64,000 bases of DNA from Deinococcales bacterium (GTDB lineage: Bacteria; Deinococcota; Deinococci; Deinococcales; JAAFIG01): positions 1 through 64,000 of the forward strand of contig JAYWGM010000072.1 of the NCBI GenBank assembly GCA_043778225.1, read 5' to 3'. Positions within the stretch are counted from its first letter, which is position 1, and each line of letters begins with the position of its first letter. A model generated the notes under the pieces. It made no database searches. It was not told where the DNA came from and worked only from the letters and a program-made list of their open reading frames with translations. Made by a program: the position numbers and the translations under genes. This document shows, piece by piece, positions 1 to 64,000 of the stretch.

Positions 1-106
1 GGTCAAACTGTCACTCAAGCGTTAATTCGGTCTTTTATCACTCCTTTTAGTCGGTTAATCAGTCAAAATACACGACTGATTAACATAACTTGGTATTACA
101 AGTCAG
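1..106 (-). repeat. Dispersed hairpin-containing repeat (MITE-like), inverted copy of 5303-5412, truncated by window start
   Basis: Reverse complement of 1-85 aligns with 5329-5412; 11-bp stem gttaatcagtc/gactgattaac at 54-84. Confidence 0.75.
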
Positions 107-263
107 AATATATTTTTTAGGGTCTTAAAAGGGTCTTAAAGGTGACTCTGCTGGTCACTGCATTCTCGAAAGGGGTAGTCGGTGCTGGATTGTGTTTTCT
201 CGAGGTAAATAAAAATCCTGACCTTAAAACGTCGGGGTTACTCGAGCTTTTGGTGTTCAAGTC

Positions 264-1943
264 CTATAGCGCAAGGATTCCTAAGATGTTAAGCAGTCCA
301 GCGCCGCATTTATTGCTTGGACAGCTCTGAAAATTTGCTGTGCCAGATGGTATGGCAGTGCTGATTAGTTTTTGCTTAAAGGTTTCTGGGGTAATCGCCG
401 TTAAACCCGTGTTCTGGGCATAGTACAAACTGGCAGCCGCACTGACTTGTGGGGCGCTAAAAGATGTCCCCGAAAATACCCGTAAAGCGGTTGGACTTAA
501 CGATAACCCATTAGCGGCTAGGGACTGCACCACGCCGTTGGCACTGATGCTGACACTATTGGCTTGGCTCGAGAAATCCGAAGCCTTAAAAATAGTGGTG
601 GCTGGAATTTGTTCGACACTGGCAACCGATACCAAACCAGCAATGGCTTCAAAACTACCTTGAGTGGCGATACTGTGGTTAGCTGGAAAATTGGGTGGTT
701 TACTGACCACTAAGCCTTTATTGCCTGCCGAAGTGATAATGCTCATGCCTCGCGCACTGGCTTCGGTTAAGGCGCTAAACAGTAGGCTCGAGGGGTATTT
801 AGAGCCAAGGCTGAGGTTAATGACTTTGACTGGGTTGCTTCCTGTATTCAGACTGACAGCGTAGCAAACACCCAGCACCACGCTCGAGTTTCGGCAACGT
901 CCGGCTGCCCCTTCACAGGTTTTGATTGGCACAACCATTTTGTCCATTTGGGCGGTGTAAGCACTTGCCATTGGTGCAAAGGTTTTTAAGATTGTCGCGC
1001 CAATAATCCCAGCCACTGCCGTACCATGCCCAATGTTGCTCGAGGTGATTGGTGTGCCATCGGGGCTGCGTTCGGTGGCAAGGTCGGAAACATCGGTTAT
1101 TGTGCCTTCAGTGGTAAAATTTCGAGCGGCGGCAGTATCTATAAAATTCCCTCCGCTTGGAATGGCAAAAATTGGATGTGGGCTAACCCCAGAATCTAGG
1201 ACTGCCACTCGAGCGGTGCTTAAATCGGTGGGAATAGCGGCTGGGCGCACAGAAGGAGCGGACTCGAGGGATGGCATTTGGCTTAACCCAGCGCTTGGTT
1301 CATCGGCGACGTACTCGGCATTTAAGTCAAAACCCACATCAGCCTCGAGTGTCTCTAGACTTTTTTGGAGTGTATTTAAGCCCTCTATGACTGAACGATT
1401 GACCTTATTATCAGAAAGCAAAGCAATTGCTTGACCACATACACTGTTGCTGTTTGGTACAAACGGTTCTTGGGTTTGGGTGACACTAAAATCAGCATTG
1501 GCAATGGCGGCTAGAACTGCCACACGGTTGGCATTGGGCTTAAATGCCAATACACCACGCCCACCAAGGATGTACTGATTTCGCGTTGCCAGCGTGCCAT
1601 AATCAGCATTGGCAAAAATATCATTGGTCTCGAGAACGGTAATGCCAGCTTGGGCTGTGGCGCTTGCACTGGCGTTATTAACTTGTACGGTGTACGAACC
1701 GCTTGGTAGAGCGCTTAGAATTTTGACTTTGACAAAAGTGCCGTTCGGGTCGGTTTCGAGAATCTGGGTAGTTTGCCCAGCAATCAGCACCGATAGCGGA
1801 AATAGCTGTTGACCTTCGATTAAAAATTCAGTGCTGCTGCTTGAAACGAGGGTACTCGGACGTAATTTTGGTGCAAGATTGACGACTGGTCTGATGCAAG
1901 CACTCAAGCCAAGCATCAGGAAAACCCAAATAATTTTTTTCAT
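264..1943 (-). CDS. S8 (subtilisin) family serine peptidase, lipoprotein
   Basis: Lipobox LSAC; catalytic motifs VLDSGV, GHGTAVAG, GTSFSAP; oxyanion motif SAGN. Confidence 0.9.
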   Translation of the reverse strand: MKKIIWVFLMLGLSACIRPVVNLAPKLRPSTLVSSSSTEFLIEGQQLFPLSVLIAGQTTQILETDPNGTFVKVKILSALPSGSYTVQVNNASASATAQAGITVLETNDIFANADYGTLATRNQYILGGRGVLAFKPNANRVAVLAAIANADFSVTQTQEPFVPNSNSVCGQAIALLSDNKVNRSVIEGLNTLQKSLETLEADVGFDLNAEYVADEPSAGLSQMPSLESAPSVRPAAIPTDLSTARVAVLDSGVSPHPIFAIPSGGNFIDTAAARNFTTEGTITDVSDLATERSPDGTPITSSNIGHGTAVAGIIGATILKTFAPMASAYTAQMDKMVVPIKTCEGAAGRCRNSSVVLGVCYAVSLNTGSNPVKVINLSLGSKYPSSLLFSALTEASARGMSIITSAGNKGLVVSKPPNFPANHSIATQGSFEAIAGLVSVASVEQIPATTIFKASDFSSQANSVSISANGVVQSLAANGLSLSPTALRVFSGTSFSAPQVSAAASLYYAQNTGLTAITPETFKQKLISTAIPSGTANFQSCPSNKCGAGLLNILGILAL

Positions 1944-1973
1944 ATCTTCTCCATTACAGCAAAAAACCTGCGT

Positions 1974-4709
1974 TTAAGAGCGCAGTGACTCGAGTTTAGC
2001 AGTGACCTCGGCTAGGTTATCATAAAAATTTTGGCGGACTGGTAATTGACTGAGTTTTAACGTCTCAATCGCCTTTTCGTAATACTCAGAGGCTACTTGA
2101 AACTGCCCAAGTTGAAAGTAAGTTACGCCCAGATTGTTAAAAGCAATGGCAATACCCGTTGGATTCTCAAACCGTTGTTGAAGTGCCAAACTACGTTCTT
2201 GAAACTCGAGAGCGGTCGCAAATTGTTTTTGCTGTCCGTAGTGCATACCAAGGTTAGTCAAGGCTCTAGAAACACCATGGAGATCGCTATTGGTTTCACG
2301 TAAGTACAGACATTCAAGTAAATGTTTTTCGGCTTTGGCATCATTTAAGGCAGCGTAGACTAAGCCCAGCCCACCAAGAGAATCGGCAAGTTTAATTTGG
2401 TCGCCAAGGACTCGCCGAATCCGTTGGGCTTTTTTGTAATACTCGAGCGCACTTGAGTAGTTTTTGTTGTTGTACTCGAGCGAACCCAGTAAATTATAGG
2501 TCTGGCTGATGGCATTTTGAGCCGCACTGGTGGCAATGCCCGAAAGTAAACCAAGGGCTGTTTCCAATAACGTTTGAGACTGCCCAAAATCACGGTACTC
2601 GCGTTGTAAAATCCAGACTCGGGTATTGAGTAATCTGGCTTGCAGCACAGGTTCTAAAATAGCAGTGATGCTTTGGGCAGTCTCGAGTTCTTCGAGGGCT
2701 TCTTGATAACGACCAAAACTTTCTAAGGTATTGGCGGTTTCTAAAAACACCTCGGCTCGAGCTTCTGGGGTTCGGGCAATACCTAAACTGCGTTCTAACC
2801 AGACTTGGGCAAGTGCTAAATCGCCGCGTTGGGTTTGGATTTGAGCTAACTCAAGAAAGGTATGATAAGCGTTTAATTCATCGCCTTCATCCCAAACACT
2901 GCGGGCTTGCCAATAATGCCGTGCGCTGTTGTGGTTTTTAATTTGGGCAGCCCGAAAATGCAGTAAACTGCGCCGCGAAGCCGAGATGTCTTGGTCTAAG
3001 ACCTCGCGCACAATATCGTGAACAAAACCAATCTGTGTGCCATTTTGGGTTATCAACATGGCGTGCCTTAATTCCTCAAGTGCCGCGTTTAATTCGTCCA
3101 GCGAACGCCCCGAAATCGTGCGTAGGGCTGCCACGGTTGCCAGATGGTCGTGGATACACAGCGCCTCGAGAACTTGCTTTGCGGGTTGGCTCAGGTTTTG
3201 TAAGCGTGAACGCACCATTTCTGCGGTTTTGTTTTGCGAATCTGGCGCAAAACGCAACAATTCCAAGACAAAAAAAGCATTGCCACCCGAACGTTTTTGT
3301 AAAGTCGCAAGGTCTGTGTCAGCGCCAATCAGGCGAGCCAATTGGATCATGGCTGTTTCGGATAAGGCATTCAAAGTCAAGAATTTCGCCTGATGGGCTT
3401 CAAGGACTGCTTTGAGGTTACTGCGCGGTGTTTCGGTATTTCGTTGGGTGATCAGTAAACGTAGGTCAGCCACTGGGCGCTCGAGTAAAAAAAGCAGAAA
3501 TTCAAGACTGCTCGAGTCCAACCATTGGGCATCATCAAGCAGTAGTAGGCTTACTTTACAATTGGTCAGTAAAATCTTGATGGCTTGAAACAAAACAATT
3601 CGCTGACTCGAGAAACGCGACTCGAGCAAACTGCTTAAAATAGCTTTTTCGGTTGCCGCCAAAACACTTAGGGCATCAGGGAAATCTGCCAAGCACTGCT
3701 CTACCAACATTTCGAGCAGCCTAAAACCAAGGCTTTCTTGGTGACAGGTTAAGCAGATTGTATAACCTGAAGTAAACCGCCTCGCCTCAAGTGCCAAACG
3801 TGTTTTTCCTGCACCCGGCTCACCCAAAATAATAGCCGTTTGACCTGCTTGTAAAAAACCAAGAATCTGCTCGAGTTCTGATTCACGCCCAATCAGGGCT
3901 AACTCGGTGGCGGCAACTGGTGCTGCCGTAGCAGCACCTAATTCGAGTTGCAAAGCCTTTTTACAGACTTCTGGTTGTTCTGAGCGAATTATTGCGAGAG
4001 CATTGAGGGTGCGCTGGCTTGGTTCAACACCAAGCTCCTCGAGCAATAGTTTGCTGATTTGACTAAAGACCAAAACACCTTGGTCAGCCTGCCCAATTGC
4101 CCCAAATGCCAACATCAAATGTCTAGCTGCATCCTCGAATGGGTCGCTATCAAGTGTTTGACTGACGGAAAGAAAAGTAATTGCCGTCTTATAATTCCCA
4201 AGCCGAAGTTCTTGTACACCAAGCCGCGCCGCAAATTCTCGGCGCTCTAAAATCAAGGCTTCACGGGTGGTTAATAGCCAATCTTCAAATTCTTCCCCCA
4301 AGCCCATTTCCCAATCGGTTAAGCGCAAGCCCGTTAAAAACGCACCACGCCACAAATCCCAAACGGTACTATCCAAAGTTGCCATACCAGCCCTAAACTC
4401 GAGAACATCGCAAGAAAAACCAGTTTGCAAAGCAAAAAAATCTTGATTTGTATCCATCACACCCTTACCCAAGGCTTTCTCGAGGGTATGACGCGCCACC
4501 GAAAGGTTATTGAGTGCATTGGGGGCTTCTGACCAAAGAATTTTACCAAGCTCACGCCGTGCAATTCGCCCACGCAAAGCCGTAATCGCTAAAATTGCAA
4601 GCGGTTTAACCCCTAGTTTTATTGCTTGAGAACTCAGTAAAACACGGGCTGTACCCAGCAACTCGAGTCTCAAATGCGATACGGCAGTGCTGTGGTCTAA
4701 AACTTGCAT
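1974..4709 (-). CDS. SARP-like regulator: wHTH-BTAD + AAA ATPase + TPR
   Basis: LELLG start, W-RG-FL BTAD motif, IGRESEL, Walker A GEPGAGKT, Walker B LLLLDDAQW, C-terminal TPR repeats. Confidence 0.85.
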   Translation of the reverse strand: MQVLDHSTAVSHLRLELLGTARVLLSSQAIKLGVKPLAILAITALRGRIARRELGKILWSEAPNALNNLSVARHTLEKALGKGVMDTNQDFFALQTGFSCDVLEFRAGMATLDSTVWDLWRGAFLTGLRLTDWEMGLGEEFEDWLLTTREALILERREFAARLGVQELRLGNYKTAITFLSVSQTLDSDPFEDAARHLMLAFGAIGQADQGVLVFSQISKLLLEELGVEPSQRTLNALAIIRSEQPEVCKKALQLELGAATAAPVAATELALIGRESELEQILGFLQAGQTAIILGEPGAGKTRLALEARRFTSGYTICLTCHQESLGFRLLEMLVEQCLADFPDALSVLAATEKAILSSLLESRFSSQRIVLFQAIKILLTNCKVSLLLLDDAQWLDSSSLEFLLFLLERPVADLRLLITQRNTETPRSNLKAVLEAHQAKFLTLNALSETAMIQLARLIGADTDLATLQKRSGGNAFFVLELLRFAPDSQNKTAEMVRSRLQNLSQPAKQVLEALCIHDHLATVAALRTISGRSLDELNAALEELRHAMLITQNGTQIGFVHDIVREVLDQDISASRRSLLHFRAAQIKNHNSARHYWQARSVWDEGDELNAYHTFLELAQIQTQRGDLALAQVWLERSLGIARTPEARAEVFLETANTLESFGRYQEALEELETAQSITAILEPVLQARLLNTRVWILQREYRDFGQSQTLLETALGLLSGIATSAAQNAISQTYNLLGSLEYNNKNYSSALEYYKKAQRIRRVLGDQIKLADSLGGLGLVYAALNDAKAEKHLLECLYLRETNSDLHGVSRALTNLGMHYGQQKQFATALEFQERSLALQQRFENPTGIAIAFNNLGVTYFQLGQFQVASEYYEKAIETLKLSQLPVRQNFYDNLAEVTAKLESLRS

Positions 4710-4831
4710 CTGATTCGATCATGACATATTTTATGCAACTAAAACCATATGGACTCGAGATGTACAAAGCCAAGTTTGATTTTTCAAAGTGTGAGTAGAA
4801 ATAAAGTACAAAATATAGTACAATTTAAGGT

Positions 4832-5110
4832 ATGCCTGTTCTCGATTATCAGCAAGATATTGTGCCACTGTCCGAGTTTCGCTCGAGTACCGCCAGTGTG
4901 CTGCAACGTGTTCAAAACACCGATGCAACCATTATCCTGACTCAAAATGGTCGGGCTGCCGCCGCGCTTTTAAGCATCGCTGAGTATCAACGTTTAACTT
5001 CTGAACTCGAGGAGTTGCGTTCTATGGCTCATGGTTTAGCCGATGCTTTACAGGGCAAAACCGTGCCGCATAAAACCGTTCAGCAAAAACTAAAGGGTTC
5101 GCGCCAATGA
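4832..5110 (+). CDS. Phd/YefM family antitoxin
   Basis: PLSEFR...IILTQNGRAAAALLSIAEY pattern; overlaps toxin start (ATGA). Confidence 0.85.
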   Translation: MPVLDYQQDIVPLSEFRSSTASVLQRVQNTDATIILTQNGRAAAALLSIAEYQRLTSELEELRSMAHGLADALQGKTVPHKTVQQKLKGSRQ

Positions 5111-5520
5111 TTGAGTGGAGTGTCGGTGCAGAACAACAGGTTTATGAAATTCGTCTTGGATTTTATACCGATGCCGCCCTTGAAAAATTCGATTCTGAAC
5201 TCGAGCAGGCTTTAGAACAACTCGATCTGTTTCCCGAATCGGCTGGTATGAACACGACTTTGTATCGCCAAGATTTACGTTCAATAACAGTAGGTGATTA
5301 CCGTCTGACAGTCTTATAAGAAATTAAGTTAATCAGTCGCGTATTTTGACTGATTAACCGACTAACAGGAGTAATAACGATACCAAATTTACGCATGAAC
5401 GACAGTTTGACCTGCTTTTGGTCAAACGAGAGTGATTAAGTTGATTTGGTATTATTGCTTGAGGAAAGAATTCTAATTTTCTCGATTATCCATCTTCGGT
5501 CTAGTGCTGCCTTTGATTGA
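5107..5520 (+). pseudogene. RelE/ParE family toxin interrupted by a ~130-bp repeat insertion
   Basis: N-part (FPESAG..LRSITVGDYRL) stops at 5319; same frame resumes ~5440 as VDLVLLLEERILIFSIIHLRSSAAFD* ending 5520. Confidence 0.65.
5303..5445 (+). mobile_element. MITE-like element with two hairpins
   Basis: Stems 5328-5338/5348-5358 and 5405-5412/5420-5427; second copy at 1-106; splits toxin gene. Confidence 0.6.
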
Positions 5521-5537
5521 TGCGGTACAATCTCGCC

Positions 5538-6809
5538 ATGCTAGACATCAAATTTATTCGTGAATTCCCAGACCTTGTGCGTGAGGCGATTGCCAAAAAA
5601 CATTTGAACCTCAACTTAGACCAATTACTGGCGCTCGACTCGAGCATTATGGCAAAAAAACGCCAAACCGAAGATTTCCAAGCCGAAGCCAACCGCGTCG
5701 CCAAAGAAATTCCCAAAGCCAGCCCTGAGACAAGGGGCGATTTAATTCTGCGCGGTAAGGACTCAAAAGCTGCCCTGACCACCCTCGAGCCAGAATTGCG
5801 CGAACTCGAGGCGCAACTTAAAACCCTGATGTATGCCGTGCCGCAAATTCCGTGGGAGGGCGCACCAGTTGGACCAGACGAACACTCAAACCTCGAGACC
5901 TTAAAAATTGGTGTGCCTCGAGAATTTGATTTTACGCCTTTAGACCACGTAGCCCTGCTCGAGAAGAATCGTTGGGCAGAAACCGAGCGGATGGCACGTA
6001 TTGCAGGGACTCGTTCGTACAGTTTGCGGGGCGATTTGGCGTTGCTCGAGATGAGTGTGTTGCGTTTTGCAGTGGATTTTATGGTGCAGCGCAATTTTGA
6101 GTTAATTACTGTGCCTAGTTACGCCCGAGAAGAAGCCTTTTATGCCCACGGACAATTCCCCAGCGCTCGAGACCAAGTGTATGCCGTAAACGGCGAAGAC
6201 CGCTTTTTGGCAGGAACTGCCGAGGTACTGCTGAACAGCTTACACAGTGGCGAATTACTCGAGGAAACCGACCTGCCCAAAATGTACGTTTCGATTTCGC
6301 CATGTTTTCGTGCTGAGGCTGGCGCGGCTGGCAAAGACACGCGCGGTTTAACTCGAGTCCATCAGTTTAATAAGGTTGAGCAGTATGTGCTTGCACCTAG
6401 CGACAAAAATAAATCCGACGAGTTATTTGAAACCATGCTCGGTAATAGCCGTTCCATTCTCGAGGCGCTGGAATTGCCGTATCGTTTACTCGAGACCAGC
6501 ACGGGCGATATGGGGACTGGCAAATACCGCATGGTAGATGTCGAAAGCTGGGTGGTCTCGGAAAATCGTTACCGCGAAACACATTCTTGCAGTGCGCTGC
6601 ACGATTGGCAAGCCCGACGCGCCAATTTGCGTTACCGCGACAGCAGTGGCAAACCGCGTTTTTGTTTTACGCTCAATAACACCGCCCTTGCGACCCCCAG
6701 AATTTTAGTGATGCTGCTCGAGAATCACCAGAATGTTGATGGCACAGTCAATATCCCAGCCGTGTTGCAACCATACATGAATAAGAAAATTCTCGAGCCA
6801 AGCAAATGA
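5538..6809 (+). CDS. serS: Serine--tRNA ligase
   Basis: MLDIKFIRE start, LAGTAE, CFRAEAG, GLTRVHQFNKVEQ, ETHSCS, TLNNTALATPR; TACAAT 5526-5531 just upstream of ATG. Confidence 0.97.
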   Translation: MLDIKFIREFPDLVREAIAKKHLNLNLDQLLALDSSIMAKKRQTEDFQAEANRVAKEIPKASPETRGDLILRGKDSKAALTTLEPELRELEAQLKTLMYAVPQIPWEGAPVGPDEHSNLETLKIGVPREFDFTPLDHVALLEKNRWAETERMARIAGTRSYSLRGDLALLEMSVLRFAVDFMVQRNFELITVPSYAREEAFYAHGQFPSARDQVYAVNGEDRFLAGTAEVLLNSLHSGELLEETDLPKMYVSISPCFRAEAGAAGKDTRGLTRVHQFNKVEQYVLAPSDKNKSDELFETMLGNSRSILEALELPYRLLETSTGDMGTGKYRMVDVESWVVSENRYRETHSCSALHDWQARRANLRYRDSSGKPRFCFTLNNTALATPRILVMLLENHQNVDGTVNIPAVLQPYMNKKILEPSK

Positions 6810-6848
6810 TTTCAACCTTTCTTCAGAATCGTAGGGCATAATTAGGTC

Positions 6849-7598
6849 ATGACTACTCGAGCTTGGAAATGGGCGAATCTCATTACTTTTATTGCCACCA
6901 TCGGCATGAATGCGGCGGCGATAACCTTGCCACTGGCGGGACGTAAAACCCAAGATGTCTCGGCAATGTTCGAGCATTTGTTTACACCAGCCAATTTTAC
7001 TTTTAGTGTCTGGAGCGTGATTTACACCCTACTTTTTGTCAATGCGATCGACAGTTTGCGGCGTTCGGACAACGAAGACCCACACATTGGGAAGGCTCGA
7101 GTTGCACTGATTGGGGCGAATATCCTCAATTTTGTGTGGCTGGTTTTTTGGCATAATCTGCTGCTTGGTTTAGCCTTCCCAACCATGCTTGGAATTTTGG
7201 GCTGTTTAATCTATGCCTTTATCAAACTCGAGCCTGTGACTTTAAGCGGCTGGGCTGCCATCACGCAACGCGCTCCGATTGCTGCGTATTTGGGCTGGAT
7301 TGCGGTGGCAACGATTGCCAATGCTGGCAATACGCTCGTCTGGCTTGGTGTTTCTGGTGGTCTCGAGCCGAGTGCTTGGGCGATGCTGTTGGCATTGGTC
7401 GCGGCTGGTATTGCTGCTTTTTTAGCAAGGTTTCATGGTGGGGCTGCCTTTTGTGCAACACTGGCGTGGGGTTTATGGGGCGTGATTAGCCGTCCGAGCG
7501 ATGGCTTGGCACTGATTGGGCTGTATCTTGGGCTGGCATTGATTGCCTTGGTGGTCTCAAGCCGTTGGTGGTACAAAGCACCTGCACCACTGATTTAA
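6849..7598 (+). CDS. Tryptophan-rich sensory protein (TspO/MBR-like) membrane protein
   Basis: FTPANFTFSVWSVIY and YLGWIAVATIAN motifs; multiple TM helices. Confidence 0.7.
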   Translation: MTTRAWKWANLITFIATIGMNAAAITLPLAGRKTQDVSAMFEHLFTPANFTFSVWSVIYTLLFVNAIDSLRRSDNEDPHIGKARVALIGANILNFVWLVFWHNLLLGLAFPTMLGILGCLIYAFIKLEPVTLSGWAAITQRAPIAAYLGWIAVATIANAGNTLVWLGVSGGLEPSAWAMLLALVAAGIAAFLARFHGGAAFCATLAWGLWGVISRPSDGLALIGLYLGLALIALVVSSRWWYKAPAPLI

Positions 7599-8197
7599 GC
7601 TGTTTCTAACATATGACAAAAAATGCCAATAATTTGCTCGAGTTGGTCAAGATCGTAACGGCGGCTATCCACAAATAAAGTGCTGTGTTGCAAACACAAA
7701 AACTGCCAATTTTCACCTGTCGTGACAGCCCCAAAGACCTTCTCGAGTGCCTGTCCTTCGCGTTCATTAAAGACTCGAGCCGCCAACATTTCGGCACAGG
7801 CTTGAGCCAGTCCGTTCTTAAAGCTCTCATTCTTGGCTTCTACCACGCTAATAACGGGCGCAAGTAGCACCAACTGCTCTGGAGATTTGGAGAACAAAAA
7901 ATCGCACTCGCCATTTAAGCCTAAGCTCGAGTCCACCGTAAAATCAATGCCCGAAAAAAGCGAGAATCGTTTACCGAGTTGTTCGCGTATGTCGGCGAGA
8001 ATCGGTGCAATGATAAATTCACTGCGGGCTTTTTCGGTGGACAATGCCAATGCCAATGGGATTTTTTGCTCCAGCCAAGCTCTGAGTAAAACAGATGGCG
8101 CTCGAGGCGGCACATTGGCAAATAAATCCTGACCCTCCTCGAGCTTGAGGCTAAATTTTTTCAGGACTTCTTGTAAAGTAAAATTGCTGTATGCCAT
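7595..8197 (-). CDS. Conserved hypothetical protein, PD-(D/E)xK-like
   Basis: MAYSNFTL, TEKARSEFIIAPIL, G-CDF, VVEAK, GAVTTGENWQF. Confidence 0.65.
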   Translation of the reverse strand: MAYSNFTLQEVLKKFSLKLEEGQDLFANVPPRAPSVLLRAWLEQKIPLALALSTEKARSEFIIAPILADIREQLGKRFSLFSGIDFTVDSSLGLNGECDFLFSKSPEQLVLLAPVISVVEAKNESFKNGLAQACAEMLAARVFNEREGQALEKVFGAVTTGENWQFLCLQHSTLFVDSRRYDLDQLEQIIGIFCHMLETA

Positions 8198-8227
8198 TGA
8201 TGTAGTCTACACAACCAAAGATGAAAT

Positions 8228-9286
8228 TTACTTTGGAAATGCTCTGTCGTACTGCACCGCCCAGACATTTTCTTTGACCCCTAATGCTCGAGCCGCACCA
8301 TAAGCCCAGAAGGGATTAGCCAATAAAGCTCGAGCCAAAAACACCAAATCGGCTTGCTCCGAGCGCACAATCTGCTCGGCTTGTTGGGCATCGGTAATCA
8401 TGCCCACTGCACCTGTCGCCAGCCCCGTTTGGCGGCGCACCGTGGCAGCAAAGTCAACTTGAAAACCAGCCCCAAGCGCAATTTTGGCGTTGGGCAGACT
8501 GCCGCCGCTTGAGCAATCGAGTAAATCCACGCCAAGAATTTTAATTTCTCGAGCAAATTGTACGGTGTTATCGAGTGTCCAGCCACCTTCTGCCCAGTCG
8601 CTTGCCGAGATACGCACCAGCAGCGGCAAATGGTCTGGAATCACGGCTCGGACAGCTTTAATCACCTCGAGCGGAAAACGCATCCGGTTTTCTAAACTCC
8701 CGCCATACTGGTCGCTGCGCGTATTGGAAAATGGCGACAAAAACGAGTGCAGCAAGTACCCATGTGCCATATGCAATTCAAGCACTTCAAAACCAGCTTC
8801 TAAGGCTCGAGTTGTGGCTTTGACAAATGCAGTTTTAACCTGCTCGAGTTCATCAGTCTCGAGCGCCAAAGGCTCTGGGTAGGATGGCGAAAAACCAATC
8901 GCACTTGGCGCAACCGCTGTCCACGAAAAGGCTGGGTTAGCGGATTTCCACGGGCGGCTCGAGCCAGCCTTACGTCCAGCGTGCGCCAATTGAATACTTG
9001 GCACTGCACCGTTGGCTTTGATTTTGCTGGTTAGTTGTTTTAAGCCAACAATATGTTCGTCTGACCAAATGCCTAAATCCTCGGCAGAGATTCGCCCTCT
9101 GGCTTCAACGGCGGTGGCTTCGACCATAATCATGCCAACACCGCCCAAGGCTCGAGCCGGGTAATGCAGTAAATGCCACTCAGTCACAAAGCCATCTTCG
9201 GCAGAGTATTGGCACATCGGCGACATCACAATTCGGTTTTTGAGTGTCAAGCTGCGTAAAGTGAACGGCGAAAATAAAAGACTCAT
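8228..9286 (-). CDS. NADH:flavin oxidoreductase / old yellow enzyme (YqjM/NamA type)
   Basis: [46 protein letters not shown]; start trimmed to MSLLFSP. Confidence 0.92.
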
Positions 9287-9371
9287 GGCTCGTATTTGAA
9301 CACGTGGCACGAGTCCAAGGCGGTTAGCTATACGACGCTTTTTGTGTAGTCCTAAGAACCTCGAGTACCGT

Positions 9372-9827
9372 TTACTCGTAAGTAATCTCGAGGATTTCAA
9401 TTTCGCGCCCTTTGACCATCACTTTTTTGCCAACTTTGTTGTCCATCAGGGCTGCACCCATGTCCGAAGCATCGGAGATTTTGCCTTTTTGTGGGTCGGC
9501 TTCGTGGGTACTGACAATGTTGAAAACCCGCTCTGTGCCATTCATACGAATTTTGACATTCGAGCCAAGCCCAACCTTTTTTTCATTAGCCACTTCTGCC
9601 ACAATTTCGGCTTTGGCAAGAATCCCCTCGAGTTGAAAAATGCGCGTCTCGAGTGTTCCCATTTTTTGGCGGGCATCATCGTATCCAGAATTTTCGGATA
9701 AATCGCCTTCTGCCATCACATCGGACATAAATGAACTGATTTCATCACGTCCTACGGTGCTTAAATGCTCGAGTTCGGCTTTGAGTTTGTCGTAGCCTTT
9801 TTGGGTCAATCTTATTTTTTCGCTCAT
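9372..9827 (-). CDS. greA: Transcription elongation factor GreA
   Basis: [38 protein letters not shown]. Confidence 0.88.
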
Positions 9828-9845
9828 GATTTTTTTTCCTTTGGC

Positions 9846-10832
9846 TTAGAGTTTCTTGGAAAGATTTTCGTCGTCCCTGACAAAGCCTTTGCCTTCTAAG
9901 TGAACATTTTCGATCACGCGCTCGTCCATCGTGGTGTTCTCGAGGGCGCTGGCAATAATATCAACATATTGTTTGAGTGGGGTGTTAATCACTTTTTTGG
10001 CTAGGGTTTCTTCAACCTGAAAAATTCCAGCGCTGTTGGTCATACGAACCCGAATTTCGATTGGTTTAACTTTACCTCGAGAAATCGTAACTTGTTCGAT
10101 TGATAAAGCCGAAACGCTATGAATATCTATCTTACCCAGTGCAAAGGCTTTTCGTCCGCGCCCTTTGGTGATGTCTGTACCGTCAGCCACAGCCGTAATG
10201 CCACCCTCGAGGGTTAAGGGCATCGGGTTGAGGTCATGGCAATTGATGCTGTGTAAAATAAATGCCCGCAGTTTGGTGCGTTGGGCAATACTTGGGTAAA
10301 CTGCGCCCAGCACCCGCTCGAGAATTGGCATTGCCAGCGCCACACCATGGGCTTCATGTCCAGCCCGATGGACTTGATTGCCCATGTCGTGCAGCATTGT
10401 ACCGAGCAAAACCACAAGGTAAGTATCGTCGGTATCGCCAGAGCCAGATTCAATCACATCGCCGCGCACTTTGGCTTCAAGCAATAAATCCAGCAGCGCC
10501 AGACTGGCTGCACCGGTCACAAAAGAATGCACCCGCCCGTGGTCGTTATAACCCAGTTTTCGCACCGTAATATAATTTGCCATGTCCCAATTGGCAAGCG
10601 CTTCTTCGTCCTTAATCAGCAATTCATAGGCTTGTAGGGCTTTGGGGTATTTCTCGAGGTCGCGGCGAATCGCTCGGTCGGCTTCTTGAATCAACTTGAC
10701 CCGAGGCGTAGCAAATTCAACCTCGCTACCTGGCGTAACATACTCGGGTAAAAGGTCGCCCGGTTGGGTGACTCGAGTCAGGTTGGCATCTTGTCCAGCT
10801 TGGATGTTCAGTTTAAGGCGTTCTCGGTTCAT
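9846..10832 (-). CDS. HD-domain phosphohydrolase
   Basis: YNDHGRVH, LHDMGN, H..AVADGTD motifs. Confidence 0.85.
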   Translation of the reverse strand: MNRERLKLNIQAGQDANLTRVTQPGDLLPEYVTPGSEVEFATPRVKLIQEADRAIRRDLEKYPKALQAYELLIKDEEALANWDMANYITVRKLGYNDHGRVHSFVTGAASLALLDLLLEAKVRGDVIESGSGDTDDTYLVVLLGTMLHDMGNQVHRAGHEAHGVALAMPILERVLGAVYPSIAQRTKLRAFILHSINCHDLNPMPLTLEGGITAVADGTDITKGRGRKAFALGKIDIHSVSALSIEQVTISRGKVKPIEIRVRMTNSAGIFQVEETLAKKVINTPLKQYVDIIASALENTTMDERVIENVHLEGKGFVRDDENLSKKL

Positions 10833-10841
10833 GAGGGCTAG

Positions 10842-10922
10842 GGTTAAAAGGTTAAAAGGTTAAAGGGTTAAAAGTAGGAAACTTTTTACCTTTTTTACTT
10901 TTTACCCTTTCTCCTTTCTCCT
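10842..10922. repeat. Short 7-8-bp purine/pyrimidine tandem repeats forming an imperfect inverted repeat
   Basis: (aaaaggtt)n followed by (tttttacc)n; related tract at 36575-36612. Confidence 0.6.
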
Positions 10923-13900
10923 TTAAGTCGTCTGTGACCAATTTTTTAAGGTTTCGTAATCGCGTTGAGCATTGGCAAAAATTCGGCTCATGACCGCCAC
11001 GTCGTCTATTTGCACCGTAATAAAGTGCTTGGTGTCGTTTTCGCCAGCTAAAAACATGGTCAGAAGTGTTCCACCGGTTTGCTCGACCGTACAGATTCGG
11101 GCTGGGCGGCGCTCGAGTTCTTTGGCAAGTTCGCGTTGGTATTTATCCATCTCGAGCAGCAAGGTGGCAATTTTTTGCGGTTCATGAATACTACCAGCTT
11201 GGAGTTCGCCGTTGGCGGCAATCAAGGCGGCTTGGGCAACACCACGTTCTTTACTGACCTCGGCAATCCAGGCGGTCGCCAAGTTGGTGTTGGCACTCGA
11301 GGCGGCGCTGACCACAAGGGGGGGTCTTGGGGCTTCCACGGGGGTCAGTTTGGCTTCGGCAGCAGCTTGCTTCATGGCGCTCATGTCGCCACCAAAAATA
11401 CCGAGCAGGTCGTCTATTTGTCCGCTGTCGCGCAGGGCAGCCGCCACCGCGTTGGCAGCTTCGGCTTCTTGGCGTGCCAGTTGCAATAAGCGCTCGGCTT
11501 CCTCGAGGGTTCGCTCGAGCTTTAAGCGGGTTTCTGGCGCAAGGCGAGTTCCCGGTTCGGTGGCAAGCACAGTGCTGAGGCGCAGCAGTTGACGGATTGT
11601 TTCGCCGCCCATCTGACGGTACAGATTGACTTCACGCATGACCGTTTCTGCCCGAATTCGCCACGCATTGACCGCATTTTCTTCGCTGATGCGTAAACCC
11701 TCGAGTTCGTCCCAGAGTGGGGCTAAACTGGTCAACATCCCAGCTTCATGCCTACCTCGGGCTTCGGCAATTTGGGTTTGTAAGCTGACACTTTGCGGAT
11801 TGCCAGTAAATTCTTTGACTGCCCCTTCAAGGTCGGTCAGTTCGCGGCGTTGGGCTGCCAAACGGGCTTCGCGGTGCGCCCGCAGTTCGGCTTCTAAAAG
11901 GGCTAAATCTGGGAAATTGCCAACTTCTAATCCGTCTCGAGCCGTTAAAAGGGTATGCACCACTTCAAATGCCCCAAGTTCGTTGGCTCGGCGCTCGAGG
12001 TCGGTCATGCGCTGTGTAAAGACCTCACGGGCGCGTTTGCCAAGGCTTTCCAAACCGAGCTTAAAATTCTCGAGTAAACCCGTAATTGGCACACCTGTCT
12101 CGAGTTGCTTTGCCGATATGCCCAGTTGGGCTTCCAGCGAAGCATGGTCGGTTGCCAACTCTGGCAAATCTGGCAACGCCGCCAAAGATAAACGCATGGC
12201 ACGCAACATTCCGCCTTCCCTTGCCACCAAAGCACGGCGCTCAGCTTCTAGGCGCTCGGTTTCGCGTTTTTGGGTAGCCAGCCGCTCGGCTTCTAGGCGT
12301 TCAACTTCGCGCTGCAAGGCAGCTAGACGGTCACGCTCTAAGCGTTCCGCCTCGAGTTGCTGGGCTTGGGCGCGTTCCATGGCTTGCATTTTTTCTTGCT
12401 CTAAGCGCTGCAATTCTAAACGTTCAGCCGCCAAACGGGCTTCTTCGGCTTGGCGCTGTTGGGCTTCGAGTTGGCGTTGCTGTTCGGCAATTCGCTCGGC
12501 TTCGAGGCGCTGTTGTACTTGCCACGTCTCGAGTGCCGTTTCTAAATGCGCCATGTGTTCGGTCAGGGCTTTGGTGACATCTTCACGCGGTTGGCGCAGT
12601 TGAGTCGCCACCTCGAGTTCGGTTAAAAGCTGCGAAAGGGTAGAAGTCTGGGCTATGCCTAGTGGTTCAAAGGTGACCAATGCACCGCGCAATTCATCGA
12701 GTAAACTTGCCTGTCGTGCGATTAAACGCTCAATCCGCACCGCTTCTTCGGCTTTGGCTTGGCGCTGTTGCTCGAGTTGGCGCTCAAAGGAACGCAGCAA
12801 ATCTTCGATTTTTTTGAGTTCGTCGCCAGCTAAGGCATTACCGCTCAGCATTCCATTAGCAACCGAGGCGGTTACGGTCGCTTCGCTGGTGTCTATGCCT
12901 TCGCTGCTGTATTTGGTCAAGAGTTCGGTGTACTGGCTTAAATTTCTTTGTTGTTCTTGTAAAAGCAGCGTAAAATCTACCTCGAGTTCTGGGCGTAAAG
13001 CTCGAATTGTCTCGCTTTGCACTTGGCGTGCCAAATTTTGTTGCTTGAGGCTTAAAAACTGCTCCTTACGAAGTGGGTTTAAGTCTATTAAAGCCGTAAA
13101 CTCGAGACTTAGGGCTTCTAAAATTCGCGCATCTTCGGCAAGTTCGATGTCTTTGACCCGCTCGGATTGCTCTGGGGTCAATTCGAGTTCTGGGAAATCA
13201 AGGTCAATGTTTAGGCTTTCGTCTAAGCCTTCGACTTCAACCAAATCCGAGGGTGTGGTCATGGCTGGACTGTTGTCATCAATCACAATCGCATCATCAA
13301 AATCCACAGCTGGTAAATTAATTTGTGAAACGCTGGTTGGTACAATCGTTGGGGTTTTGACCGATGGTGGCACTTGGACGACACTTGATTCAATCAGTTT
13401 ACGCAACTCGAGTACCAATTTACGGGCGCGTTCAACTTCGGCAGATGCCAGTGTCTGGGTTTCTTGGGCTTCGGTAATCTGGGTCAATAAGCCTTCTAAG
13501 CGCTTGACCCTCGGTCCACCAACCGATTTGACCTTTTCAAAACCGCCCTGAAGCTCGGCAATTTCTTGGGCTTGACGCACCAATAAATCTTGTAATTTGC
13601 GCTCGAGCGCCCCAAGTTGGGCTTGGGCATCGCGCAGCAGTTCTGGGGCAGTGCGCGAGGCGGCTTGTTGTTCGCGGATGACATTGATTTGACTGCGAAA
13701 CTTGCTGACTTCTGCCCAGTCAAAATAAAGCGCAAAACGCTTTAAGCCTTGCTCGAGTGGCACAAGGGCTTCGGCTTGGCGGTCGAGGGCTGGGTCTTTG
13801 ACGGGTGGTGCTTCGCTGCCAAATTGCTTCTCGAGTTTTGAAAGTTCATCTAAAATTTTTTGCACCGCCGTTTTTGCACTGGCTGGCGGCAATGCCACTT

Positions 13901-14069
13901 GCAACTGCTTATAGACATTTGATTTCAGGACTTTTTCGATGTCCTTTGCCGAAACGGTATCCGAAGTTTTACCAAGCCGCGTTAAACCCTCGTCAAAACT
14001 GCCTTTGGTGGCTTTCAGGGTGCTTTCAGAGTCAAAGTATTTGCTGATTGCAGCGTATAAAGGGGTCAT
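10923..14069 (-). CDS. Large coiled-coil protein with C-terminal Roadblock/LC7-like domain
   Basis: Long E/Q/R/L/A heptad regions; C-terminal GVAQAALIAANGELQAG; N-terminus resembles that of 15859-17019. Confidence 0.7.
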   Translation of the reverse strand: MTPLYAAISKYFDSESTLKATKGSFDEGLTRLGKTSDTVSAKDIEKVLKSNVYKQLQVALPPASAKTAVQKILDELSKLEKQFGSEAPPVKDPALDRQAEALVPLEQGLKRFALYFDWAEVSKFRSQINVIREQQAASRTAPELLRDAQAQLGALERKLQDLLVRQAQEIAELQGGFEKVKSVGGPRVKRLEGLLTQITEAQETQTLASAEVERARKLVLELRKLIESSVVQVPPSVKTPTIVPTSVSQINLPAVDFDDAIVIDDNSPAMTTPSDLVEVEGLDESLNIDLDFPELELTPEQSERVKDIELAEDARILEALSLEFTALIDLNPLRKEQFLSLKQQNLARQVQSETIRALRPELEVDFTLLLQEQQRNLSQYTELLTKYSSEGIDTSEATVTASVANGMLSGNALAGDELKKIEDLLRSFERQLEQQRQAKAEEAVRIERLIARQASLLDELRGALVTFEPLGIAQTSTLSQLLTELEVATQLRQPREDVTKALTEHMAHLETALETWQVQQRLEAERIAEQQRQLEAQQRQAEEARLAAERLELQRLEQEKMQAMERAQAQQLEAERLERDRLAALQREVERLEAERLATQKRETERLEAERRALVAREGGMLRAMRLSLAALPDLPELATDHASLEAQLGISAKQLETGVPITGLLENFKLGLESLGKRAREVFTQRMTDLERRANELGAFEVVHTLLTARDGLEVGNFPDLALLEAELRAHREARLAAQRRELTDLEGAVKEFTGNPQSVSLQTQIAEARGRHEAGMLTSLAPLWDELEGLRISEENAVNAWRIRAETVMREVNLYRQMGGETIRQLLRLSTVLATEPGTRLAPETRLKLERTLEEAERLLQLARQEAEAANAVAAALRDSGQIDDLLGIFGGDMSAMKQAAAEAKLTPVEAPRPPLVVSAASSANTNLATAWIAEVSKERGVAQAALIAANGELQAGSIHEPQKIATLLLEMDKYQRELAKELERRPARICTVEQTGGTLLTMFLAGENDTKHFITVQIDDVAVMSRIFANAQRDYETLKNWSQTT

Positions 14070-17019: not shown

Positions 17020-17081
17020 CCGAAGCTCGCATTGACCTACAGTAGCATTGCATCACGGCTTTAGGCAATGAAGTACGCACC

Positions 17082-17501
17082 TTAACTGCTTTGCTCGAGC
17101 AAGCGTTCTAACATCTCGAGCAATTGACTTGGGCGGTAAGGCTTGGTTAAAAAGTTTAAGTTGCGCCGATTTTTACGCCGGTCTTTTAAGCCATGTGGCG
17201 TGGTGATTAAAATGAGGTGAACACCACGGCTTAGCTGTCCCCTAAACAAACGCGAAGCCACTTCAAAACCATCCATGTCGGGCAGCATCACATCTATCAC
17301 AACAGCAAATGGCGGGGTCTCGAGACTCCAAGCTAAACTGATTCCACCCACACCACTGCTGGCAAACTCGACCCGATAACCACGCTGCACCATGACGGTC
17401 GCAAGGCTGGCACGGACACTCGAGTCATCATCAATCAACAAGACCAATGGGGCTTCTGGCGGGGCAGTCAAAGAACGTATGGCAAGTTGAGACGTTTGCA
17501 T
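17082..17501 (-). CDS. Single-domain response regulator
   Basis: LLIDDD, IDVMLPDMDGFEV, FLTKPY. Confidence 0.88.
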   Translation of the reverse strand: MQTSQLAIRSLTAPPEAPLVLLIDDDSSVRASLATVMVQRGYRVEFASSGVGGISLAWSLETPPFAVVIDVMLPDMDGFEVASRLFRGQLSRGVHLILITTPHGLKDRRKNRRNLNFLTKPYRPSQLLEMLERLLEQSS

Positions 17502-46538: not shown

Positions 46539-46570
46539 AAGAAAAACCCCACTCGAGTCTCGAGCGGGGC
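46539..46570 (-). terminator. Attenuator terminator upstream of aspS
   Basis: Minus strand gccccgctcg-agact-cgagtggggt then TTTTCTT, just before the RBS. Confidence 0.8.
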
Positions 46571-60600: not shown

Positions 60601-60955
60601 CAGTCTGCTCGAGAATTGTTTGTACTGGAACACGATTTGCACTTTGTTGCAAAACCCAAGCCGAGAATTCGGCTGGAACATCACGCCACAATAAGCGCAA
60701 GCCCACCAACACCACGCTTTTAGGTAGTCTGAATTGCTCGAGCCGTGAACCTCTTGATGGAATTCGAGAATCGGAAATTATTTTTTGTACCCGCCAAATC
60801 TCATGGCGCACCAAAACATTGCCACCCTGGTCAGCAAAAACTTGGTGGAAAACTCGAGAACCTTGTGGCAATCCGCCAGCCGCATCCAAAACACCGCTCG
60901 AGAAAACTTGCCGCCCAGTCGCATCCATGCCACGTACCTCGAGCCACAATTGCCG
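60590..60955 (-). pseudogene. C-terminal fragment of a multiheme cytochrome c-like protein
   Basis: LRQLWLEV..DATG..FSSG.LD..DSRIP resembles C-termini of multiheme cytochromes; 5' end replaced by IS remnant. Confidence 0.5.
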
Positions 60956-61137
60956 TAATGATTGGAGCATGGATGATACAAGGACAAATGAGCAAATTAT
61001 ACTGTCGTGAACTCAAAGGCAATTGTACAAGTCCACAGGTACAAGAATTTATTGAAGACCTGACAAAAATACGAAAGAAGTCTGATCAAATGATGGTGAT
61101 TGTCTTGGACAATGCTGCCTTTCATAAAACCAAGTGA
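60956..61137 (+). mobile_element. IS630-family transposase fragment
   Basis: VQEFIEDL..VIVLDNAAFHK (DDE_3 motif) then premature stop. Confidence 0.7.
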
Positions 61138-61201
61138 ATTCTACTGTGCACTTTTTGCACAAAATATGCTCCAAGTCGCTATACCTTTATATAGTGGAAT
61201 C

Positions 61202-61233
61202 AAAAAGACCCTGTTAAACACAGGGTCTTTTTT
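61202..61233 (-). terminator. Intrinsic terminator of tRNA operon
   Basis: aaaaagaccctgt-taaac-acagggtcttttt. Confidence 0.85.
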
Positions 61234-61308
61234 GGTGGCGAGAGCCGGGCATGATCCGGCGACACTACGATTTTCAGTCGTATGCTCTACCAGCTGAGCT
61301 ACCCCGCC
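61233..61308 (-). tRNA. tRNA-Phe(GAA) with atypical T-loop
   Basis: 76-nt cloverleaf, anticodon loop CTGAAAA, encoded CCA; T-loop ATCATGC. Confidence 0.9.
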
Positions 61309-61368
61309 GTGGTAAAGCCTTGCAAATAACCGTTTGAAAAATCGCCCGAGCGAACCCGGGCTTTTTCG

Positions 61369-61444
61369 TGGCGGACCGGACGGGATTTGAACCCGCGACC
61401 ACCCGCGTGACAGGCGGGTATGCTAACCGCTGCACCACCAGTCC
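61369..61444 (-). tRNA. tRNA-Asp(GTC)
   Basis: 76-nt cloverleaf, loop CTGTCAC, GGTTCAAATCC, encoded CCA. Confidence 0.95.
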
Positions 61445-61474
61445 AAGGCAATGCTGCTCTCTCGAGCGGCGAGG

Positions 61475-61809: not shown

Positions 61810-61813
61810 GCGA

Positions 61814-63370
61814 TTAGTTTTTACGGGCAATGCTTTTCATTTGCATAAAATGCAGCAAATAATCTGGTCCGCCAGCTTTGGAATCCGTGCCGGACAAGTT
61901 AAACCCACCAAACGGATGACAGCCAACCATTGCCCCAGTGATTTTACGATTCAAATACAAATTGCCTACGTGCAATTCGCGTTCGGCAAACTCGAGGCGC
62001 TTAGGGTCGCTCGAGAATAATCCGCCTGTTAAACCGTATTCTGTGCCATTCATGACTTCCATAGCGGTTTCAAAGTCCTTGACTGGAATAACTGCCAAAA
62101 TGGGCGAGAAAATCTCGTCTTGGGCGAGTTTATCGTTTGGTTTGACATCGGCGACAACAGTTGGTTGCACATAGTACCCTTCGGTTTCTGGGTTGCTTGT
62201 GGCAGTGCCGCCGGTTAAGACTCGACCTTCGGTTTTGGCAATCTCGAGGTATGTGCGTGATTTCTCGAGCGATTCCATGTTAATCACAGCATTCACGTAC
62301 TTATTCTCGAGCGGGTCGCCAACGCTCAGGGCATTAACTTTAGCCGTTACTTTCTCGAGAATTTCGGGGTAAACGCTTTCCACCACAATTAAACGACTGA
62401 GCGCACTGCATTTTTGCCCAGCAAAACCAAATGCTCCTGCCACGGCGGCGGTTGCGGCTGCCTCAAGGTCGGCGGTTTCATCTATAATCATGCCGTCTTT
62501 GCCACCAAGTTCTAAAGTCACGCGCTTAATCCAGCGTTGACCAGCCACAACTTTGGCAGCTTCGGCGTTGATGTGCAATCCAACGTTTTTAGAACCCGTA
62601 AAACTAATAAAACGGGTTTTGGGATGCTTGACCAGATAATCCCCAACCACCTCGCCCAGTCCGGGTAAAAAGTTAATCACACCAGATGGCAGCCCAGCCT
62701 CGAGAAGTAATTCAATCGCCTGAAATGCAATCACGGCGCTGTCCTCGGCGGGTTTGACAATCATGCAGTTCCCCGCCACGATTGGCGCACAGGCTTGCCC
62801 TAAAAAGATTGCAAATGGAAAATTCCAAGGGGTGATGCTGACCCCGACACCAAGCGGAATGTACTCGGCGCGGTCAGATTCGCCTTCCATTTGATAGGTG
62901 GCAATTGGCTGGCAGAGTTTTAAGGCACTGCGGGCATAATACTCGAGGAAATCTATGGCTTCTGCCGTTTCGCCTTCGGCTTCGGCGTAGTTTTTGCCAA
63001 CTTCATAAGTCAGCCAAGCATTGTACTCGAGTTTGCGCTCACGGATGATGGCGGCTGCCCTGACCAGCACCGCCACTCGAGTCTCGAGCGGCGTGACTTT
63101 CCAAGTTTCAAAGGCTTTATAGGCGACTTCTAGGGCTTGGTCGGCATGAGCAGTCGTGGCGCTCGAAACCCGCCCGATAATTTGGCTGGGCTTACACGGG
63201 TTATGCGACTCGATTTTATCCTCGAGCATGATTCGCTGGTCGCCGATAATGAGCGGGTAATCCAGCCCAAGTTGACTCGAGACTTTGGCAATCGCATGGC
63301 GATAAGCCGCCGCGTGGTTTGGGTGTGTGTAATCGGTGTAGGGTTCGCATTGGTAGGTCGGAAGGTTCAT
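61814..63370 (-). CDS. pruA: L-glutamate gamma-semialdehyde (P5C) dehydrogenase
   Basis: [52 protein letters not shown]. Confidence 0.92.
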
Positions 63371-63387
63371 AATTTCTCCTAAAAGCC

Positions 63388-63678
63388 TTATGAATCAAGG
63401 CGGTGAATCCAATAAAACGGATGGCGGCGTTTATGGGCAATCGCATAAAATAGAATGGTATCGGCTCGAGCTTCGTAAATCAGATGAAACTCGTATTTTC
63501 CGACGGTCTTTTTGCGAATACCGTCAATCTGAGTTTTTGGCGCAGCTTCTGGGAATAAACAGGCATCGGCGATGGTTTCTTCGAGTGCCACCACAAATGG
63601 ATTGGCATTCTCTGATTCAAATTGATTAGACAAATACAGCATTTCCTCGAGAAAATCTGGGTGGTAAAGTCGCGTCAC
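63388..63678 (-). CDS. RelE/ParE family toxin
   Basis: FPEA, IRK, LIYE, AIAHKRRHPFYW. Confidence 0.85.
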   Translation of the reverse strand: MTRLYHPDFLEEMLYLSNQFESENANPFVVALEETIADACLFPEAAPKTQIDGIRKKTVGKYEFHLIYEARADTILFYAIAHKRRHPFYWIHRLDS

Positions 63679-63884
63679 TTTTTAACTCGAGTTGGTGAGA
63701 AAACTTCGTCATGGGTTAAGAATTTGATTTGACCAGAATCAAAATCCGTTTTTCGGCGTGAAACTTCGGCTAACCATTCGAGACTTAGCATTTCTTCGTC
63801 CAGACTTGTCATAAAGGCTTGTAAATCAGCGCGTTCTTGCGGACTTAATTCGGTCACTCGTTCTTTGACTTCGGCTAGGCTCAT
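63675..63884 (-). CDS. Addiction-module antitoxin
   Basis: LSPQERA..WLAEVSRR..HDEVF; overlaps toxin start. Confidence 0.8.
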   Translation of the reverse strand: MSLAEVKERVTELSPQERADLQAFMTSLDEEMLSLEWLAEVSRRKTDFDSGQIKFLTHDEVFSPTRVKK

Positions 63885-64000
63885 AAGTTTATTCTGCTCC
63901 TTTTTGAAAATAAATCAAGTTTATCATTCAAATTTTTTCTTGAAGATACGATACAAACTTTCCATTTGGATGCTGCTGCAATGCCACCAAACGCCCGTAC

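Follow-up and report, generated by a model that had tools for sequence, protein, structure and literature searches.

Abundance and placement of CTCGAG

The stretch of DNA analyzed here (the window) comprises positions 1 to 64,000 of contig C72 of a Deinococcales genome, G000 (4.03 Mb in 107 contigs, the longest 154 kb). It is crowded with copies of one palindromic hexamer, CTCGAG, which by word count and gene calls occurs 410 times between positions 199 and 63691 (no strand assigned) at a mean spacing of ~156 bp, in all codon phases and in intergenic DNA. Only 8.4 copies are expected under an order-1 Markov model and 27.7 under an order-2 model, and the runner-up palindromic hexamer has 41 copies. 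This excess is real, family-wide, independent of codon use and conserved between relatives.

An earlier note on this DNA had described CTCGAG as a highly iterated palindrome like HIP1, outside the cyanobacteria. That description holds: the word is abundant, present in all frames and between genes, conserved, and scarce in low-GC islands. The first 11 positions that the note gave (199, 241, 568, 787, 883, 1039, 1208, 1263, 1344, 1629 and 1989) are all exact, and the similar density it saw throughout corresponds to 7-17 copies in every 2-kb bin. Copies do fall in all coding frames (209, 88 and 72 in codon phases 0, 1 and 2), with a further 43 within 7.0 kb of intergenic DNA.

The whole genome carries 24,877 copies (6.17 per kb, or one per ~160 bases), for a ratio of observed to expected (O/E) of 47.5 under the order-1 and 15 under the order-2 model. 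All 107 contigs carry the word, at 4.0-10.6 per kb. Coding and intergenic counts are based on our own gene calls (3,836 genes). The 22,650 coding copies comprise 13,688 read as Leu-Glu, 4,471 with CGA in frame and 4,491 with TCG in frame. Leu-Glu thus makes up 60% of coding copies, as a by-product of codon or dipeptide preference would have it, and in GC-rich outgroups codon use does make most of the raw count. The earlier note had named loss of the enrichment under codon control as the outcome that would refute it. Ten synonymous shuffles within genes produced only 2,374-2,545 copies, leaving a ~9-fold excess, which reaches 11- and 15-fold in the two frames that do not encode Leu-Glu. Intergenic DNA holds 2,222 copies versus 37-47 expected. 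The shuffles and the intergenic excess refute both a codon or dipeptide by-product and an assembly artifact; recurrence of the word in independently assembled genomes (below) also speaks against them, and we give such explanations almost no credence. Contigs from two sequencing runs match long parts of window positions 1-20000 with no letter different; these runs are possibly the assembly's own source and thus not independent.

Density depends on the type of DNA. It falls to 0.4 per kb in the 19 genes below 36% GC (low-GC islands), and it climbs to 6.4-7.6 per kb at 48-56% GC. The note's statement that tRNAs lack the word is correct for both tRNAs of the window; across the genome a few copies do occur in tRNAs, with 6 in 69 ARAGORN calls (32.8 expected). 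Four of these six lie in an array of 26 atypical tRNA genes (G000 C19:9937-14171).

Other features of the window

Some copies are chained in pairs. An intergenic CTCGAG-T-CTCGAG pair (CTCGAGTCTCGAG) lies at 41119-41131 (copies at 41119 and 41126; no strand assigned), exactly where the earlier note had placed it. The other two pairs that it listed exist one base before the positions given, starting at 46552 and 63076. The second of these (CTCGAGTCTCGAG, 63076-63088, copies at 63076 and 63083, no strand assigned) is within the reading frame of a RocA-type aldehyde dehydrogenase. The first (46552 and 46559) supplies the 11-pair stem of a terminator-like hairpin (46546-46570, minus strand), with a run of T after the stem, upstream of an aspS-type gene, consistent with the note's claim that the word occurs inside terminator stems. 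The window encodes an archaeal-type non-discriminating AspRS. Terminator-like sites between 36001 and 56000 number 27, compared with 27.6 in a shuffle, and intergenic positions account for only 23 of 123 chained pairs; terminator building is therefore a minor use of CTCGAG.

A CTCGAG-free stretch (60951-61460, no strand assigned) contains tRNA-Phe (61233-61308) and tRNA-Asp (61369-61444). An Rfam scan of the window identified no noncoding RNA beyond the tRNAs, and no 16S rRNA was found in the assembly. Positions 1-99 (no strand assigned) are the end of a multi-copy repeat that has nine more matches in the genome and lacks CTCGAG, as do all multi-copy repeat ends listed for G000. Several families of such ~100-bp element ends without the word break the assembly, here and at many contig ends. 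A gene at 24512-25210 (minus strand) encodes an HNH-type protein that matches IscB/Cas9 models weakly and in part, at a score far under the cut-off.

Distribution across Deinococcota

We counted CTCGAG in 364 genomes of the phylum (sizes rounded) and calculated codon-controlled ratios from sampled genes (10-68 kb of coding DNA per genome). In the source family, f1, the word occurs at 4.3-6.8 per kb in 19 of 19 genomes, which were independently assembled and have 45-61% GC where sampled; enrichment in relatives, a check that the earlier note had proposed, is thus complete within the family. The sister family, f3, is mixed. Its genus g7, probably Deinococcus, has 0.01-0.36 per kb in 111 genomes; three other f3 genomes are motif-rich (G062, 3.6 per kb; G171, 8.6; G172, 7.0), and G173, a 95% complete congener of the latter two, has only 0.3. 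Elsewhere, densities are 0.6-1.6 per kb in g9, which is probably Thermus, 1.4-3.5 in g13, g29 and g30, and 0.3-2.8 in family f2. After codon control, the word is enriched in G172 (ratio 11.4), G013 (4.5), G062 (4.5), g13 (2.8), G025 (1.9) and f2 (1.5), with no excess in g9 (0.79), G173 (0.70), G168 (0.24) or G056 (0.08).

The host appears to belong to an uncultured Deinococcales family that groups with Meiothermus-type genomes: its order includes a genome with a protein annotated as Meiothermus ruber, and homologues of its AddB are annotated as Meiothermus. Gene order between G000 and its relatives G003 and G006 is scrambled into blocks of ~5-15 kb, even inside the genus. A search that covered papers outside subscription found no publication tying CTCGAG to highly iterated palindromes, to Meiothermus methylation or to over-representation in Deinococcus-Thermus, and an earlier mention may exist. 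In the parts available, one paper (PMC8112702) treats CTCGAG methylation, in Halorubrum only.

Strength of the bias and its effect on proteins

The bias on CTCGAG overrides codon choice, changes amino acids, and yields to restriction-site avoidance and tRNA structure. Of 19,769 Leu-Glu pairs in G000, 13,688 (69%) are spelled CTCGAG, rising to 7,228 of 8,984 (80%) where no restriction-site conflict exists and the next copy is >65 bp away. Use drops to 2-10% where completing the word would make an avoided restriction-type hexamer. Leu-Glu is the most over-represented dipeptide of the genome (O/E 2.31; Ser-Ser, 1.59); in orthologous genes its O/E is 1.31 in motif-poor G173 and 0.8 in G056. By arithmetic on use counts, most one- and two-letter alternatives lie ~e^4.2-4.6 below CTCGAG, a gap that looks as it would for fixation bias near equilibrium.

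The genome also avoids words. GGCC is nearly missing (131 copies, O/E 0.007), ~40 other hexamers are avoided, and GATC has an O/E of 0.20. The depletion of the dipeptides Trp-Pro (0.10) and Gly-Pro (0.34) follows from the avoidance of GGCC and the ~40 hexamers.

Sites persist between relatives. In genes aligned between G000 and G003, which show 49% four-fold divergence, 604 of 973 G000 sites are shared, with 369 private to G000 and 238 to G003; G011 and G018 share 267 sites, with 72 and 55 private. A two-state estimate for CTC-GA[G/A] gives gain at ~4x the control (a lower bound) and loss at ~0.06x (counts 424/10/17/8).

Two one-letter variants are notable. CCCGAG/CTCGGG has a 2.5- to 3.5-fold excess and is found between relatives as 11 shared versus 56 discordant sites. 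CTTGAG/CTCAAG is 3- to 8-fold above the codon baseline (GAG/GAA is 0.97 after CTT versus 0.25-0.33 after GTT, ATT and TTT), and its 124 discordant sites make it the commonest class, with none shared (genome pairs reuse genomes). Other conflict-free one-offs give 20 shared versus 199 discordant sites; the difference from CTTGAG has a Fisher p of 1e-4, which is overstated by the shared genomes. The never-shared CTTGAG means fast turnover, and no more.

Such turnover is what would be expected of site-restoring repair, in which an enzyme binds a CTCGAG duplex with a mismatch in one strand and repairs it to the perfect word. Site-creating mutations would then become fixed and site-destroying ones would be undone, on any DNA in the cell and without selection. 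The excess of CTTGAG/CTCAAG and its 124-to-0 pattern would then reflect fast two-way turnover at the central C, and phage-type DNA also carries the word (below). Set against this, only ~3 shared CTTGAG sites are expected even under full independence, and the model does not itself predict the effect of neighboring sites. Nor was an obvious enzyme found: Vsr (PF03852), which Dcm/Vsr-type very short patch repair would require beside a cognate m5C methyltransferase, has no match in any of the 19 f1 genomes, with positive controls matched, and a crude pattern scan (a weak test) revealed no NucS-like motif. We consider site-restoring repair unlikely. Short-patch repair directed by nearby sites is rejected as far as divergence can tell, since divergence at four-fold sites stays level (0.97-1.02 of the gene mean; sites partly saturated) whatever the distance from a shared copy. 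The same profile lends no support to the methylation-coupled repair that the earlier note had suggested.

Mutual suppression of neighboring sites

Copies of CTCGAG exclude one another at short range. Relative to baseline, pairs occur at 0.30 for distances of 6-11 bp, 0.42 for 12-20, 0.76 for 21-35, 0.83 for 36-50 and 0.83 for 51-65; other inverted hexamer pairs in the same bins give 0.65, 0.84, 0.92, 0.94 and 0.92. At conflict-free Leu-Glu pairs, use of the word drops from 0.82 to 0.42-0.48 once another copy comes within 15 bp. The pair deficit recurs in G003, G006, G011, G018 and G013 and, weakly, in G009; the small samples from G172 and G062 do not show it clearly. An extended palindrome, CCTCGAGG, is at 0-0.4 of expectation in G000 and six f1 relatives, weakly depleted in G172 and not depleted in G062.

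The spacing could reflect an abundant nucleoid or protective protein that binds CTCGAG with a footprint of ~20 bp, occupied sites being maintained by ordinary selection as part of chromosome organization. The deficit is strongest below 20 bp, counts are under-dispersed at 100-1000 bp (variance/mean 0.76-0.84), density is nearly equal across genes of low and high conservation (6.3-7.0 per kb), and CCCGAG/CTCGGG seems partly tolerated. Xu et al. make this case for HIP1 (PMC5861425, in the parts available). However, no candidate protein was identified, and no 10- to 11-bp periodicity is visible by eye in pair distances of 6-119 bp. The role of such a protein is doubtful.

Methyltransferases

A methylation-linked origin follows Elhai's model: once a methyltransferase has marked CTCGAG, mismatch repair directed by the methylation raises the number of copies like a ratchet, the enzyme having been missed or often replaced. 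Several observations suit it. Blow et al. (PMC4752239) report active m6A CTCGAG methyltransferases without a cognate nuclease in Marinithermus hydrothermalis, Meiothermus ruber and M. chliarophilus; the available portion of the main text mentions neither these genera nor a genome-wide excess of CTCGAG. After codon control, a 2.8-fold excess remains in the genus with the M. ruber-type enzyme. G000 has MutS and MutL motifs, and the fast turnover at the central C would be in keeping with methylation of that base.

The searches went against the model, and lent no support to the orphan XhoI/TaqI-like methyltransferase that the earlier note had suggested seeking. As stand-in queries we used P0001, an annotated Meiothermus ruber methylase with an Eco57I domain that is probably the CTCGAG enzyme of that species, and a TaqI-like enzyme from G025 (E 2.5e-126 to M.TaqI). 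Full-length orthologues of P0001 occur in 4 of 61 genomes and none in f1, where the best match (G009) reaches 32%; orthologues of the TaqI-like enzyme occur in 8 of 61, again none in f1. No family-wide cluster emerged for PF00145 (19 genomes; 33 loci clustered for 70 rows), PF02086 (19 genomes; 29 loci for 34 rows) or PF01555 (five relatives and G000 only), and f1 searches with PF07669 and PF01170 identified no family-wide methyltransferase. The widest cluster, an m5C enzyme with a downstream partner gene, spans seven genomes of one genus. Single-contig genome G013 has five DNA methyltransferase matches across PF00145, PF02086, PF07669 and PF01555, none common to all, and motif-rich G172, G062 and G202 also lack these methyltransferase types. 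The flat four-fold-site divergence likewise speaks against locally directed repair. An enzyme may have been overlooked, as hits were partly fetched, genomes are incomplete and PF02384 was not among the families searched. The best reading is that upkeep of CTCGAG needs no family-wide methylase, and we judge a methylation-linked origin improbable.

Methyltransferase genes are numerous in G000 itself and mostly lie next to nuclease-like genes or within islands, with many restriction-modification-like pairs; this abundance fits its avoidance of GGCC and ~40 other hexamers. The XhoI endonuclease family PF04555 had no match in G000 and none in any control, so the result carries no weight.

Phage-type DNA

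Mobile DNA also carries the word. An intact-looking prophage in G011 (C40, ~9000-42000), with integrase, primase, m5C methyltransferase, terminase, portal, capsid and tape measure genes, contains 154 copies in 33 kb (4.7 per kb; 27x the order-1 expectation) between flanks at 7-8 per kb. Relatives of its terminase are distant and motif-poor (≤0.76 per kb in 80 loci). In G000, a type I-E-like CRISPR array (type judged by repeat and gene sizes) of 43 spacers lies beside a cas operon (C80:16-11352). Ten of the 43 spacers hold CTCGAG, versus 7.3 expected at host density, and none has a full-length match elsewhere in the genome. Older spacers hold 7 of these 10 copies and newer ones 3, so some may have arisen by conversion after capture. 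No other f1 genome was found to carry an array of the same repeat, so the spacer result rests on one array.

No free phages of f1 were found: one spacer had no match in metagenome contigs and the array no useful phage match. A protein search found no Meiothermus phages or plasmids. The IMG/VR candidates were rejected: the three densest long contigs among the matches listed are GC-rich with plentiful GGCC, and in the two that were compared with G000, no protein matched. These contigs (L230, L216 and L183) carry 5-7 copies per kb (4-10x order-1) and are unlike f1 DNA; other lineages may thus favor the same word.

A possible recombination-linked bias and AddAB as its candidate reader

How is CTCGAG held at ~6 per kb? 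We tentatively favor a methylation-independent fixation bias linked to recombination, while regarding it as plausible rather than probable. The bias acts on the DNA word itself and favors any allele completing CTCGAG. Its origin would lie in the rescue of linear DNA (broken chromosome ends, transforming DNA or phage DNA) for recombination: a protein on the rescue route would read the word, DNA carrying it would more often be protected and recombined in, and CTCGAG would thereby drive itself upward, as uptake sequences do. A further copy close by would bring little gain, and the spacing deficit would follow from this. The lead candidate for the reader is the AddAB helicase-nuclease, with CTCGAG as a Chi-like stop signal; a sequence-biased uptake receptor would be another form of the same class.

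G000 encodes an AddA-like protein (C79:31198-33813) and an unlinked AddB (C32:43473-45914). AddB orthologues match Pfam ADDB_N, and the AddB model (pLDDT 81.8) has B. subtilis AddB as its best match (E 3e-26). The two genes are adjacent or nearly so in G013, G011, G026, G207 and G031. Of the Chi-pocket positions described in PMC3321194, Q42 is kept as Q40, and W73 and F210 are replaced by Y67 and Y180, both aromatic. In a search that scored two candidates per genome, an AddA orthologue was identified in 18 of 19 f1 genomes (the missing one is 57% complete) and in all three motif-rich f3 genomes (G062, G171 and G172). It was not found in motif-poor G173 (read from a tally of two of three in its genus) nor in g7, where the best match (E 1e-40) is helicase background. 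According to PMC11143384, Deinococcus lacks AddAB and loss of AddAB in T. thermophilus raises transformation 100-fold or more, which indicates that AddAB gates incoming DNA in this phylum. Among competence genes of G000, DprA is above the cut-off and a ComEC-like protein is above it with the N-terminal model and below it with the full model; a pattern scan (a weak test) found no ComEA. HIP1 has been reported to raise transformation and has been likened to Chi (10.1101/2024.09.10.611283).

Many observations weigh against this candidate. Genera g9 and g26 have AddA without excess of the word (codon-controlled ratios 0.79, in 20 kb of genes, and 0.24), so AddAB is at most necessary and not sufficient; 60 kb of G168 (g26) contains no other strongly over-represented word, and in a g9 genome the AddB pocket is much like the one in motif-rich genomes. 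The pocket residues D41, T44 and R70 are not kept in AddB of G000. AddB was not located in G062, G168, G171 or G172. The genus-level association of AddA with the motif in f3 is not significant (Fisher p 0.08) among kin that are not independent, and G173, with its small genome, has undergone much gene loss. Known Chi sites, as far as PMC3321194 describes them, are G-rich with a GxGG core, and CTCGAG is a palindrome without GxGG; E. coli Chi is 6.7x over random, attributed to codon use (10.1101/2021.07.08.451572, in the parts available), and we found no precedent for a palindromic Chi enriched 47x. The spacing deficit is in part generic, as other inverted hexamer pairs also drop, and the never-shared CTTGAG variant is not explained by a recombination-linked model. 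Judged from sequence comparison, it is unlikely, if worth pursuing, that AddAB reads CTCGAG as a palindromic, orientation-free, Chi-like signal without methylation.

Relation to known motif systems

CTCGAG is best filed among the highly iterated palindromes. Like HIP1 and the alternate HIPs of cyanobacteria (PMC4390886, PMC5861425, PMC13756078), it is a palindrome far above expectation, in all frames and intergenic DNA, conserved beyond codon needs and spread by substitution. It differs in phylum, in density (6,170 hexamers per Mb versus 300-2,700 per Mb reported for the HIP1 octamer), in the short-range exclusion between sites and in methylation: Elhai's account, in the parts available, finds a matching methyltransferase in every HIP genome, and none is shared across f1. 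CTCGAG thus behaves like HIP1, except that no methylase shared across f1 emerged from the searches. HIP1 itself is ruled out, as the word is CTCGAG and not GCGATCGC, GATC is depleted and the host groups with Meiothermus-type genomes.

DNA uptake sequences are 9-10 bases long and asymmetric. CTCGAG is six bases, palindromic and about ten times denser, and no receptor was identified, with no receptor search run. Like the uptake sequences of Pasteurellaceae and Neisseriaceae (PMC2817400), it raises the peptides it encodes about two-fold, is missing from genes acquired recently and contributes to some terminator stems, and ComEC-like and DprA genes are present. The resemblance to Chi of RecBCD/AddAB lies in a short word, present in temperate phage DNA, with AddA and a B. 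subtilis-fold AddB that keeps part of the Chi pocket; the available accounts describe Chi as asymmetric and modestly enriched, unlike CTCGAG, and two AddA-bearing genera show no excess. The orphan m6A methyltransferases of Meiothermus and Marinithermus recognize the same word in the same bacterial order; f1 differs in having no orthologue of the two enzyme types tested and in carrying the word at 2-3 times the density.

Implications

Why HIP1 saturates cyanobacterial genomes is a question three decades old, and the leading ideas depend on methylation. CTCGAG provides an independent, denser case in another phylum without a shared methylase. It also offers natural contrasts: motif-poor G173 stands beside motif-rich G171 and G172, and cultured relatives with moderate enrichment are amenable to assays of recombination, uptake and repair. 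The finding further shows that one DNA word is able to raise a dipeptide more than two-fold across a proteome. This bears on analyses of codon bias and selection, on binning, on assigning phages to hosts and on the design of DNA with which to transform these bacteria. If AddAB does read CTCGAG, the signal would have risen in hosts and their phages until copies stood 160 bp apart on average, adding ~11,000 extra Leu-Glu pairs to a proteome, and would decay where AddAB is lost. This would constitute a methylase-free route to a highly iterated palindrome and a direct model for the HIP1 question.

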